Assembly: GCA_045837725.1 (NCBI GenBank)
Contig: JBEWZL010000043.1
Coordinates: forward strand, 186,001-231,881
Reading direction: 5' to 3'
DNA: 45,881 nt
From: Vermamoeba vermiformis
Taxonomy: Eukaryota
Part shown: in pieces, positions 27,601-32,759 of the stretch
Layout: every line of letters begins with the position of its first letter
How positions within the stretch are numbered: the first letter of the stretch is position 1
Made by a program: the position numbers and the translations under genes
Notes under the pieces: generated by a model
Told to the model about the DNA's origin: nothing
The model's database searches: none
What the model saw: the letters and a program-made list of their open reading frames with translations, nothing else

Positions 27601-28370
27601 ATTAATGACAGTTGTTACCTTTGCCCGTTTGGTCTTCTTTGACCACTTTAAATCGAGTATTAATTAAGATTAATTATAAATACATTTTGTCATACCATAA
27701 GTCTTAGTTCCTGCTTTTTTGGTGCTTTTTTCTGGATTCGTGCCCTTGAAAAAAATTGTTAGTGGATGCAAAACCGTTAGTGTGAAGAAACTGCAATAAA
27801 TGGTGCTATGACACGGGGAAAAAATTATTACCATGAATTTCTTTGACCTTGTTTTTTCGCCTCCCTAAAAAAATTTGTTGTTGCGTTCTACTTTGTTAAT
27901 TAAATCAGGAGGCCAACACATGTCGTCTAAAAACACCAAAGAGAACAGACGAGAGAGTCTCTCTTCGCTCAACGTAGAGGAGGTCACGGACGAGGTAAGC
28001 GGTCATATGAATATTTATTTGGATGAATCAAATAACAAAATTTGAAATGCCAGAGGCTAAAATATCCTTAAAAATTACTTTTTAACTACGTTCGTGTTTG
28101 TACTGAAAACAAAAATATTTTTATTACTTCGGAATAAGTTGGTCTCGGATACAAACTGAGACCGTGATAATAATCTTGTTTAATTTTCTCCTCCTTTATT
28201 TTTTTCAAGGGCTGGCAACTCCCGTGCATATTTGTTGCCAAGGTACTTTAGATTCTTGCCTGTGCAAGGCCTGATTTTCCTCCCTTTTTGCGCAAAGGGA
28301 GGCAAACAGCGTCTTGCGTGCAAGGCCTGATTTTCCTCCCTGACTGTGCATCTTGGGGAGGAAAATGATA
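24601..28370 (+). repeat. Dispersed ~50-80 bp palindrome+hairpin module, 4 copies (24601, 25196, 28255, 28310)
   Basis: gtcttgcgtgcaag(a/g)c-ctgattttcctccct-loop-(a)gggagg; the copies at 24601 and 25196 are identical over ~65 bp. Confidence 0.9.
25934..27834 (-). CDS. Multi-exon RING-finger protein with acidic/basic nuclear region and unknown C-terminal domain
   Basis: CPVC-x14-C-x4-H-x2-CKTC-x10-CPEC; NLS-like SKKRKRE..KKARKEKKRK; ATG at 27834 followed by GT-AG introns. Confidence 0.7.
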
Positions 28371-31300
28371 TTTGCCCATGTCAGTTGTGCGGATCGAACA
28401 AACTTTGTTTTAATTGAACCGCTATGTAAAACAGAAAAGCTTGCCTAATGCCCTTTAAAATATACATAAATATATTCTAATGGACTGATAGTCTGCCAGC
28501 GAGCGAATCTGGCAACAGGATTCGCAAAATATATTTCAAAATTTAGTGCGGATATGTTAATAACTTGCTTGGTCATAATATATGTGAAAATTGGTAATAT
28601 TCCGATCGATTTGGAAGGTGCTACAGAACAGCGAGAGACAATTAGATTCAATTTTTTAAATCCGCTTTGGCCCGAAGCTCGCAACTAACCGCACTTCTGC
28701 AGAGTTTCTTGTTTTTGCCGGAGGATTGGGAGCTTGCGACCATTTCAATGCCTGAGGTTGTTTCTATGAAGGTGCCGAACGCTCGCTGTCATACCGGGAG
28801 TTGCCAAACCACTGGTGACGTTTATAAGTAAGTAGCTTCAAAACTGGAGAATCACGCTTAGCCTTCTATCGTAGGTTACCACAGCTGGACAATCTTTACT
28901 GTTTCGGATGTCTCAGCTCTGGAAGCGTATTAATCAAGGAGAACGCTCGTCCTTTTGCCGAAGAAGCTAAACTGAGATATCGGTTGTAAGTTTTGGTTTT
29001 TCTAGCCGATGGCATTTAACCGCACATTGCAGCGAAAACTTTCGGAAGATCGCACGGCACCAGGTCATGAAGCTTATCGAGAAAGCCAAAGTTTGGGACA
29101 ACGCACAGGGAGCAGTGAGCGCAACACTGCTCGTCAACAAGAAAGATAGGTCACAGTTTACCTACAGTGTCTTTGCGGGTAAGTTTCAATAGCATGGATG
29201 CTCGGGATCCCGATCTAACCAAGTACAATTAAGGTCATCACCGAGCTTTTGCCATCCGGCACTTGATGGGGCGGTTGCAGTTTCAAAATTACTGCATAAA
29301 GGTGTTTTTGTTTCCCAATGAAGAGGTAAGCAAGTAGAATCTTAGCAATTTTCATTGGTGCAACTAAATACTCTTTGCATAGGAGCTACGTAAACACAGC
29401 ATCCAATTGCAAGAGCTGGAGGAGATTACCATGGAAATGTGTCCCATGGACAAGGTTGTTGCCGCTCGCAAGGAGATCGAATTAGCCTTCGAAGATAGCC
29501 ATGTAGACAGTTATGATAAACTGTCTGCCGTGATGGTGGCCCACCTGAAACATACATATGGAGGTAAGTAGCTAGCCAATTCTTAATATGTATTTAACTC
29601 CGCACTATTGAACAGCGGAGAACGTCAAAATTGCCTCCGCAATTCCATTGCCTCTGCTCGAAAAATTACGTGAGCTCAGTTTGTTCACGCTTGCCTTTGC
29701 AGATGCGTCAGAGTAAGATCGGCCGAGAATTTAGATGATGTTCTGCTAATCAAATCTTAGAACTCCTTTTCCGAAACGTTCTCTAGCTTCCTTTTGCACC
29801 GGCTCGACCCAAGAAGAGATCTTCGAAGTTATAAGTCCGTTGATCGATGAGTACTGGCAATATTATAAGTACTGTAAGTGTCACCAAGTTATTTAAATTT
29901 TTTAACTTTAGTTTATTTAGTGTATACGTCAAAAAATATGGTACAAAAGAAAAAAGGCCAGTTCACGAAGGCTACGCTGGATGAGTGGCTAAAAGAAGTC
30001 AGGGAAAAGCTGGCTAAAATTGAAATTGAGCCCGGTAAGTTCAATATATTAGTAGAACTTAATAGCTAATTGGTTTATTAGAAAAAACTTACGAAATGCC
30101 CAATGTAAACCACTCGTTGTATTATAATAAGATACAACGACAATTTTTTGATGCTTGCGAGAAAATCTTGGACATGAAACAAGTGAGTATCCGCTGAGAA
30201 TTATTTAACAACTCATTCTTACCGTCTTCAGGCTGCATGGCCAAAAGAGCTGACCTCAAAAGCTAAGGTAGTGTTTGATACCAAGTGTATCAAGCACTTA
30301 AAGGAATGTGAGCAGAAGAAGAGCTACACGCTAATAGCTTGGGATAGTGACCAGTACAAAGCAGATATTCAATCTCTGCAATGTGGCTTGTACTGGCACA
30401 TGCCCAAAGAGACTCTGCTGGAAACGGCCAAAGCCGAAGACCTTCCCGTGGTTTTGGCTTTGCCGAAGTTTCCTCAAGATGCTGACCTTGCCGTTGTTAG
30501 TGGATACAATGGGCTTATACTTGGTACGTAATTCAATTTTGTTTACATTATTCTGACTACCTTTAGTACCAATGGTTGGAAGTCACAACTTTGTCACCGA
30601 GGCAAATACTTTGTTCTTCAACATTGCTGGAACTGCTCTGTCATTGTTGGTGAAGAATCTGAAGCTTCCTAGTGGACAATTAGCGAACGAGTACTTCGTC
30701 GAAGTACTCACACGTTCTTATTTTGCCCTTGCTTCGGTAAGTACGTCAACTACTTAACTGTCGTCTCATGTTGTTTTGTTAGACCGAATTCTTCATGAAA
30801 CAAAGGCTTGATAAAAATAATTTTGAGCAACAGTTGCCAATGACAATTTTATCTTGTTTGAATGCACGTAAGTACTCAAATCCGTTTTAATGATAGTGAC
30901 TAACCCTTGTGTAGTGCATATTTGTTGTGGCAAAAAGTGTGCAAAATTGGCTGTCATTGGAGAGATGACTGAATCTACTATGGTGGACTTAATGCACTAC
31001 TCTCTCTCCATTGCCCATTGCTCAAAGACGGCACTTGGGAACCGCACCATCCCTCTTCCTGCTTGTTTGCCAGAAGTGCAGTCTGTGGTTAAAGTTGCTC
31101 GAAGTTGGCTGCCAGCAGGCAGTCAGCCCAATCAGCCCAATCAGCCCAAGAAGACACTTGCCTACCAAATAAGGCTTGGAGCTTTGGCTTCGGAAATACA
31201 ACGGCAGCCTATTCCCACCCCTGTTGTAGTTGTTTTCAGTGGTCAGCCTGGAGGTGAAAGGCATGACATTAACAACCAGGCATGCATCCCGCCAACTCTC

Positions 31301-32759
31301 CCTTTTCATGGTTCACGTAAGTTACAACGTACCAAGTTTAGACTAGTTTATAATTGTTTTAAATCTAGGATGGTACCCAACCGACAAATTGAGCTTGGAT
31401 GACCTCGAGCAGGTCAGCAAAGGGGAGGATGAGATAATCAAGCTTCTGTGGCCGAATTTATCTTGTAATGTTGCACAATTTTCGTATTTCTATTCTTCTG
31501 GCTGGCAAACACACGGATCCGTAAGTTTGACTAAGCAAATATTTTGTGTTTGTAACATTTGCTTTAGGGTTGTGCTCAAAAATACCTTTTGTTGCCAAAT
31601 TTCAAAGGATCAATATTTTGGGTGGTTGGTAAGGCCAACGCAGGTGATGTTATCCCAGCACGTAAGTAAAATTACGTATAGTCATATCATTTTCTAACTA
31701 ACTTTATGATACAGTCAATGCCGGAGACAAGCTTATGGCGAATTATTCGGCATTCCTACAGTCTCCTGGGGAACAGATCGTTTTACCAATCGCGACAAAG
31801 CGCTATTACTTCTTCGTGCTGCCGTCTTGCAGTCCTGGGGGTGAATGTAGCAGCACAACGGCATTTCTTGTGCGGCAGTGGGTGCTTACAAGGCATGAGG
31901 CTTTTTACATCTCTCTTGCCAAGCAGTCAAAGCTGGATTTCCTATGGATTTTACTACAGTTTGCAAACAAGCCATGGACAATGAGCATATCGAAGAATAT
32001 TTTCGATCTCTTCCGTGAATTTATCAGTGATTGGCTTACGTTGGATGGTCTGACAGCACTTGTCTGTGAGGATAAAAATGGCTTCTCTGGTTGGAAATAT
32101 TGCAGTACTTGCAACAGTGTGATGTCTCTGCTGGTTTTGTACTCCCAGAGTCTCGTAGCTTATTGCATCCGCTGTATGAAGACTGCCTCTGTTAGAACGC
32201 AGAAATGTATCACTGCAGTCGCTCTGGGTCAGAACTCTGCCAAGTTTTTGTTAGTTCAAGTTGCACGGTAAGTGGCAGCGATATTTGTTCAAATAGTAAC
32301 TTGCAGCTTCGCAGGGCAATTTGCAATTTAATTAATGGTCCCCATTATCCTACTACTGAGAAGGAAAAGCACTTGCAGACAGCCAACAAGCATCTTCAAG
32401 TACTTATTGAAAAGGCTAAAGAGTCTAAAAGCGAGATAATTCCAAAATTGCCTATTGCATTTTGGCGTGGAGAACCAACTATGACCTTCCGGCCCAAAGA
32501 TGAGTTGGAAGATATCGAGCCCTACACAGGAAAAGAAGAGCACTTTTCAATGAGTCATCGCGAAGCAGCAAACGACGCAGCGAGCGAGGCAGAGAGAGAA
32601 GCAGAGAAAGGAGCAGCGAGTGAGGAGCAAGAAGAGGAAGAAGAAGAGGATGACAGCGAAAGCCTTCAGGATAGTCGCAAGAGACCAGGAGAGCCACTTC
32701 CAAACCCTCAAGCAATGAAGAAGCCAAGGACGGCATCGCAACCTCAAGCTAAAAAATAA
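27920..32759 (+). CDS. Large multi-exon protein: Cys cluster + ParB/Srx-like domain + degenerate JmjC/cupin-like domain + C4 Zn finger + acidic/NLS tail
   Basis: Phase-consistent splicing from MSSKNTKENR. ParB-like: NFRKIARHQVMKLIEK..YSVFAG|HHRAFAIRHL. JmjC-like: FKGSIFWVV..AFLQSPGEQIVLP. Zn finger: YCSTC..YCIRC. Tail EEEEEEDDSE..RKRP..KKPR. Confidence 0.75.

Follow-up and report, generated by a model that had tools for sequence, protein, structure and literature searches.

Proteins of the ParB/sulfiredoxin (Srx) superfamily carry a GxxR motif, the arginine of which is described as a conserved active-site residue (PMC5512222). The ParB-CTPase fold was surveyed in 2025; there, the Pfam model was applied at its gathering score to EukProt, and sulfiredoxin was named as the commonest eukaryotic representative of the fold (PMC12704722). 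The main text of that survey gives fusions of ParB-fold modules for bacteria, phages, and archaea only, with partners such as helix-turn-helix (HTH), HNH, methyltransferase, CBS, ASCH, and MT-A70 domains; its supplementary lists may hold eukaryotic multidomain members (PMC12704722). In phages, ParB-like proteins have also been described as activators of 5-methylpyrimidine (TET/JBP-type) dioxygenases, the activator and the enzyme being two separate proteins (PMC13229309). We analyzed a 45,881-nucleotide (nt) stretch of the Vermamoeba vermiformis genome (GenBank assembly GCA_045837725.1, contig JBEWZL010000043.1, positions 186,001 to 231,881 of the forward strand; hereafter, the window), in which a gene at 27920-32759 on the plus strand had been predicted to fuse a ParB/Srx-like domain to a degenerate JmjC-like domain and a KDM6-like zinc finger. 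We consider it most probable (roughly 55%) that this is a single intron-rich gene for a lineage-restricted protein of 1115 residues, of which residues ~85 to 238 form a nucleotide-binding module of a very divergent ParB/Srx type. All coordinates below refer to the window, and those within the gene are on the plus strand.

Before splicing, the region 27920-32759 consists of short open frames whose separators start with GTAAGT and end with AG. Once 17 introns are removed, the 18 exons form a single 3348-nt frame (1115 codons, no internal stops), which runs from an ATG at 27920 to a TAA at 32757-32759 and yields a predicted product of 126 kDa. GT..AG borders are present in all 17 introns, of which 12 start with GTAAGT, 13 contain a branch-like YTRAY pentamer located 10 to 40 nt upstream of the 3' AG, and 16 are 43 to 57 nt long (the exception being intron 1, with 708 nt). 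The exons have a G+C content of 45.5%, versus 33.7% for the short introns, and an AATAAA signal (32774-32779) lies 15 nt past the stop codon. Introns of 43 to 57 nt are too short to hold a gene boundary or a second promoter, and the exons were thus assigned to a single gene. The locus is therefore, as predicted from its open frame and its canonical short introns, a real and single intron-rich eukaryotic gene, in agreement with the original prediction. Repeat analysis of the window found no long terminal or inverted repeats flanking it.

This model is least secure at its 5' end. Exon 1 (27920-27994; 25 codons) is tentative and is defined by the donor at 27995, which keeps the frame of the ATG at 27920; the interval from 27800 to 28828 has no other consensus donor. 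The 708-nt intron 1 (27995-28702) is equally uncertain, and an ATG at 28748, in exon 2, represents an alternative start. A 48-nt repeat also occurs twice in intron 1 (28240-28287 and 28296-28343). The window has four copies of a short repeat that includes a hairpin (TTTTCCTCCCT ... AGGGAGGCAAA), i.e., two in 28240-28343 and two upstream of the gene (24589-24690 and 25184-25285), the latter pair being 96% alike over 91 nt. By its sequence, this repeat looks like a miniature inverted-repeat element.

The proposed ParB motif, GHHR (residues 153 to 156; 29178-29244), becomes readable upon splicing, as had been claimed: intron 4 (29179-29233) splits the glycine codon into 29178 and 29234-29235, and the HHR codons follow at 29236-29244. 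The other peptide stretches quoted in the original prediction were likewise recovered in the spliced translation. We searched the spliced protein with home-made profiles of bacterial segments matching Pfam ParB_N, among them 11 GCHR-bearing sulfiredoxins of cyanobacteria, using 2000 shuffled sequences and 729 background open reading frames (ORFs) as controls for hmmsearch. All eight profiles containing ParB_N or Srx segments placed their best match at the GHHR site and in the same register, with GHHR opposite the GERR of ParB or the GCHR of sulfiredoxin. The strand and helix flanking GHHR were always aligned to the ParB strand and the GxxR helix, and R156 of GHHR fell on the active-site arginine of GxxR in every profile alignment.

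The strength of the match depended on the composition of the profile. A profile of 11 canonical ParB sequences scored 3.4 bits (E value, 0.0037; reached by 9 of the 2000 shuffles and 1 of the 729 background ORFs), and one of 22 ParB and Srx sequences scored 5.0 bits (E = 0.0014; 4 shuffles and 1 ORF). No background ORF reached the scores of the following profiles: (i) 31 sequences, with 8.1 bits (E = 1.5e-4; no shuffle); (ii) 71 sequences, with 8.5 bits (E = 1.1e-4; one shuffle) over residues 136 to 216 (29127-29481), which form the hmmsearch core of the region; (iii) 49 divergent sequences only, with 8.9 bits (E = 8.6e-5; one shuffle); and (iv) 91 sequences, with 6.4 bits (E = 4.7e-4; one shuffle). 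When residues 60 to 240 were compared with the 71-sequence alignment by hhalign, the match had a probability of 56.6% (P = 1.1e-4) and comprised 138 collinear columns, spanning residues 85 to 238 (28927-29547; parts of exons 3 to 6, with introns 3 to 5). In this alignment, ENFR (residues 105 to 108; 29034-29045) falls on the Box I NPR motif, with R108 opposite the NPR/QPR arginine of ParB, and GHHR falls on the P-motif. The score was 29.4, whereas none of 170 shuffles exceeded 19.6 and none of 170 windows of real ORFs exceeded 20.0. Because the score had been watched while the profiles were being enlarged, we also made an independent replicate profile from 20 previously unused Bacillota segments, which again picked this site, with an unchanged register (E = 0.0094; hhalign P = 0.011).

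The profile of divergent stand-alone bacterial ParB_N sequences thus outscored both the canonical ParB profile and the sulfiredoxin profile, which suggests that the module, if real, is nearer to these divergent bacterial proteins than to either of the better-known groups. Several bacterial members of the profiles have a similar motif, namely AGHHR in one of them (L198) and AGHTR, AGHGR, or AGHCR in others. Taken together, the profile evidence is suggestive of a ParB/Srx module but does not amount to proof, and we consider a true ParB/Srx fold in the N-terminal part of the predicted protein, taken by itself, to be fairly probable.

A number of observations weigh against this assignment. Pfam ParB_N (PF02195) had no match on exons 4, 5, and 6 at E values up to 10, the putative domain being split by introns 3 to 5. 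The claim of a ParB/Srx module stands as a weak, reproducible profile signal at GHHR and fails to draw a Pfam match on separate exons. Searches by phmmer with the 71 ParB/Srx sequences taken singly gave no significant match (best E value, 0.079), and of 15 Smith-Waterman comparisons, only one fell on the N-terminal site, with a score reached by 33 of 200 shuffles. A GmrSD_N profile had no match in the spliced protein. A profile of nine ParB N-domains with the adjoining HTH gave an E value of 0.049, stopping by residue 163 and not extending into the HTH, and that of the sulfiredoxins alone gave -0.9 bits (E = 0.11). Enlarging the profile from 71 to 91 sequences lowered the score from 8.5 to 6.4 bits, and the score of the Bacillota replicate was reached by 19 of the 2000 shuffles and 5 of the 729 background ORFs. 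In the segment opposite ParB Box III (ENxxR; 29401-29451), the asparagine and arginine of the cytidine triphosphate (CTP) pocket are lost. The nominal values (E = 8.6e-5 to 0.0094; hhalign P = 1.1e-4 to 0.011) fall short of what a curated threshold would accept, and their true significance is lower still, as the site had been picked out visually in a window of 45.9 kb and several profiles were built. The gene model and the spliced protein are themselves sequence predictions. AlphaFold2 gave no usable model for single exons, with low predicted local distance difference test (pLDDT) values of 38.6 for exon 17 and 33.7 for exon 14. With a profile signal this weak, the module is for now a lead and no discovery.

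A second, weaker ParB-like stretch occurs in the same protein, in exon 14 (residues 643 to 685; 31139-31267), with an E value of ~0.03 on a 161-residue piece. This stretch, which is similar to ParB from Box I to Box II, contains QPKK, a helix-like LGALASEI, PVVVV, and GGERH, lacks the strand before GxxR, and is blank in Pfam. It is probably a chance similarity, the alternative being a decayed tandem copy of the module, and its E value indicates that weak ParB look-alikes are not rare. For the profile sources themselves, ParBc_2 (PF08857) had a match in none of the five genomes screened.

Searches for relatives returned little. A Pfam scan of all 18 exon translations, performed one exon at a time, found no family near the cut-off; the best values (E = 0.037 to 0.16) came from short cysteine-rich or helical bits. 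Exon 17, the largest (183 residues), had no phmmer match at an E value of ≤0.001 among 1,835,955,588 representative proteins. In word-index protein searches, none of 538 candidates for exon 17 and none of 256 for exon 14 scored. Among metagenome contigs, none of the pattern matches for exon 17 (0 of 172) or exon 11 (0 of 508) was confirmed, and the same was true of the 14 pattern matches for exon 14 among viral contigs. Comparison of exons 17, 4, and 5 with the PDB sequences gave nothing but two chance Rab-25 rows (E ~1). A protein atlas did not recognize exons 14 and 17 (recognition values of 1251 and 1259, with 91 of 100 known-family proteins reaching 2300). A tblastn search of the window with the spliced protein found no paralogue, the best match elsewhere having an E value of 0.10. 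As a control, the neighboring ANKRD13_C-like exon (9837-10244, minus strand) matched a protein that is 91% identical over the aligned half of the query, and the lineage is thus at least sporadically represented in the protein collection. The predicted protein is accordingly, in the collections searched, an orphan by sequence and lineage restricted, and its ~700 residues C-terminal to the ParB/Srx-like module belong, as read from the translation, to no recognizable family.

The strongest competing explanation, which we regard as unlikely but to be taken seriously, is that the protein is such an orphan without any ParB/Srx fold. The similarity at the GHHR site would then be due to chance, and the product would be a lineage-specific nuclear or zinc-binding protein with an undescribed or unrecognizable fold. 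The blank Pfam scans of all exons, the insignificant pairwise comparisons, the replicate P value of only ~0.01, the chance-level look-alike in exon 14, and the failure of the protein atlas to recognize exons 14 and 17 are all in line with this explanation. It has to contend, however, with the choice of one site and one register by all eight ParB_N/Srx profiles, with an hhalign score that lies ~10 units above each of the 340 controls, and with a 138-column collinear alignment that places both key arginines. A divergent ParB/Srx-type module in an otherwise orphan protein remains our preferred reading.

The full architecture that had first been proposed is much less probable. In it, a ParB/Srx module for a nucleoside triphosphate (NTP) is joined to a JmjC (double-stranded beta-helix) domain lacking iron and to a zinc finger of the KDM6 type, the whole serving as an NTP-gated DNA clamp that reads histone marks. 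In KDM6 proteins (UTX/JMJD3), a beta-rich stretch of the JmjC domain is followed by a helical stretch and a CxxC...CxxC site. The same order is seen here: the proposed JmjC-like region (residues 753 to 845; 31568-31899) contains GSIFW (residues 766 to 770; 31607-31621) and QSPGEQIVLP (residues 799 to 808; 31759-31788), and strands and a helical stretch are followed by a CxxC-x17-CxxC motif (C913/C916 and C934/C937; 32101-32175). Unlike KDM6, however, the locus has no iron ligands and no JmjC signal in bacterial profiles, and its four-cysteine spacing is generic. The translation has no HxD/E...H triad in register with GSIFW and PGE, exactly as the original prediction had stated.

We tested the JmjC assignment with Cupin_8/JmjC_2 profiles of 7, 10, and 30 sequences, all of them bacterial. 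The profiles of 7 and 10 sequences had no match in the spliced protein, and that of 30 sequences scored -2.0 bits in the wrong place (residues 323 to 342). By hhalign, the P values were 0.21, 0.31, and 0.41; the best local match of the JmjC_2 profile (P = 0.21) does sit on the PGE motif but spans 16 residues. No Pfam JmjC or cupin match was found on exons 15 to 17, across which such a domain would extend. Tet_JBP (PF12851) had a match in none of the 301 genomes screened as a profile source. A degenerate JmjC domain is thus represented by motifs that exist in the translation but draw no support from the three bacterial profiles, hhalign, or Pfam, a set of tests limited to bacterial JmjC sequences without any KDM-type JmjC. 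As for the zinc finger, the CxxC-x17-CxxC motif exists and may form a zinc ribbon, although its spacing is generic, Pfam offers at best a double zinc ribbon below the cut-off (E = 0.16), and nothing ties it to KDM6.

None of the results supports the proposed mechanism of an NTP-gated DNA clamp with a dead histone-mark reader, which we treat as speculation. The DNA-binding and dimerization parts that a clamp needs (i.e., the HTH or dimerization domain of ParB clamps) were not detected, and the profile combining the N-domain and the HTH stops at the N-domain core. Should the C-terminal region prove to be a beta-helix, a precedent for its pairing with a ParB fold would exist in phages, where ParB-like proteins activate thymine dioxygenases (PMC13229309). 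Under a related and similarly improbable scenario, a eukaryotic nuclear protein would unite, in one chain, a mobile-element-type ParB NTP switch (GHHR), a double-stranded beta-helix domain without iron, and a zinc ribbon, with the nucleotide gating the loading of a noncatalytic reader of DNA or chromatin marks. If true, such a chain would correspond to the phage partnership of ParB-like protein and dioxygenase, with the two partners fused.

Derivation from a eukaryotic sulfiredoxin with added domains is very unlikely. The F-x-G-C-H-R of sulfiredoxin resembles the F-A-G-H-H-R found here, G-x-H-R matching GCHR save for the cysteine, and no other ParB-fold protein is as common in eukaryotes (PMC12704722). 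Nevertheless, histidine takes the place of the catalytic cysteine, the profile built from the 11 cyanobacterial sequences of sulfiredoxin remains at -0.9 bits versus 8.9 bits for divergent ParB_N, and sulfiredoxins are single-domain proteins of ~90 to 130 residues versus 1115 residues here. The present scores suggest that the module lies outside the sulfiredoxin clade. Least probable of all is a mis-joined model or a pseudogene in place of a functional gene. One could cite for it the lack of RNA support and of an orthologue that would show constraint, but a frame that stays open for 1115 codons over 17 canonical introns would be very improbable unless selection had maintained it, and AATAAA follows its stop codon.

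Among the described groups, the predicted module most resembles the divergent stand-alone bacterial ParB_N proteins (PF02195), many of which have 420 to 480 residues and a G-H-x-R P-motif and which gave the best-scoring profile (8.9 bits). A core of strand, G-H-x-R helix, and strand is shared with them, down to AGHHR in L198. As in the stand-alone ParB_N fusions (PMC12704722), the module would be joined to unrelated domains; exon-wise Pfam scans detected none of the bacterial, phage, and archaeal partner domains named above. It differs from the bacterial proteins in that no single member is significantly similar to it (best E value, 0.079) and in that its host is eukaryotic and its gene has 17 introns. 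With the canonical ParB/Noc CTPase clamps, it shares alignable arginines in Box I and in the GxxR of Box II; unlike them, it has lost the Box III ENxxR, and neither an HTH nor a C-terminal dimerization domain was found. Our literature search turned up no description of a ParB/sulfiredoxin and JmjC architecture, in line with the earlier statement that no protein of this kind has been described, and no description of a pairing of DUF3723 with ParB.

If the ParB/Srx-type reading is correct, the module would bind a nucleoside triphosphate via R108 and R156. Adenosine triphosphate (ATP) or a not-yet-defined nucleotide would be likelier than CTP, because the Box III asparagine and arginine of the CTP pocket are absent. 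Binding might gate self-association or a weak enzymatic activity (phosphotransfer or nuclease), and the zinc-ribbon-like motifs and the basic tail could guide the protein to DNA or chromatin in the nucleus. The gene may hold a ParB/Srx module of a new eukaryotic form. In that case, the ParB fold would have a hidden eukaryotic range that is missed at the gathering-score threshold, and the gene would provide a handle on the role of a ParB-type NTP switch on eukaryotic chromatin.

Other features of the predicted protein concern zinc binding and localization. An N-terminal cysteine cluster (C54, C59, C76, and C79, arranged as Cx4C ... CxxC; 28787-28911) extends across intron 2 and may bind zinc. 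At the C terminus, an acidic tract (net charge of -14 in residues 1051 to 1100) precedes a basic tail that resembles a nuclear localization signal (32562-32756). Together with the putative zinc ribbon, these features suggest that the protein is probably nuclear and zinc binding.

The gene is surrounded by other eukaryotic genes and by repeats. On the minus strand, a cysteine-rich RING- or zinc-ribbon-like exon (27292-27504; E ~0.0015, short of the cut-off) was observed; it is part of a divergently oriented gene for an acidic protein, located directly upstream of the gene at 27920-32759. Farther away on the same strand are two exons of conserved eukaryotic genes, namely, a GNT-I family exon, similar to N-acetylglucosaminyltransferase I (6861-7214; E = 4.6e-8), and the ANKRD13 C-terminal-like exon mentioned above (9837-10244; E = 9.5e-5). 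The frames at 5097-6368 (minus strand), 12757-13841 (plus strand), and 40951-41532 (plus strand) comprise two ankyrin-repeat genes whose long frames lack introns, together with a small frame for a SET domain (E = 1.5e-16). Four tandem-repeat arrays (18395-18833, 34825-35854, 44013-44677, and 16828-17891) have periods of ~26, 37, 43, and 155/309 nt, and the array at 34.8 to 35.9 kb has a G+C content of 63%, versus ~40% for the window. A direct duplication of ~1.94 kb (19640-21150 and 22043-22965) contains repeat families that are 1937 to 1944 nt apart and 74 to 89% identical. Runs of the hexamer GCAGGT/GCACCT (37154-37212, 38304-38391, 40482-40521, and 42978-43041) give rise to Ala-Pro repeats in several frames, on both strands, that are not otherwise related.

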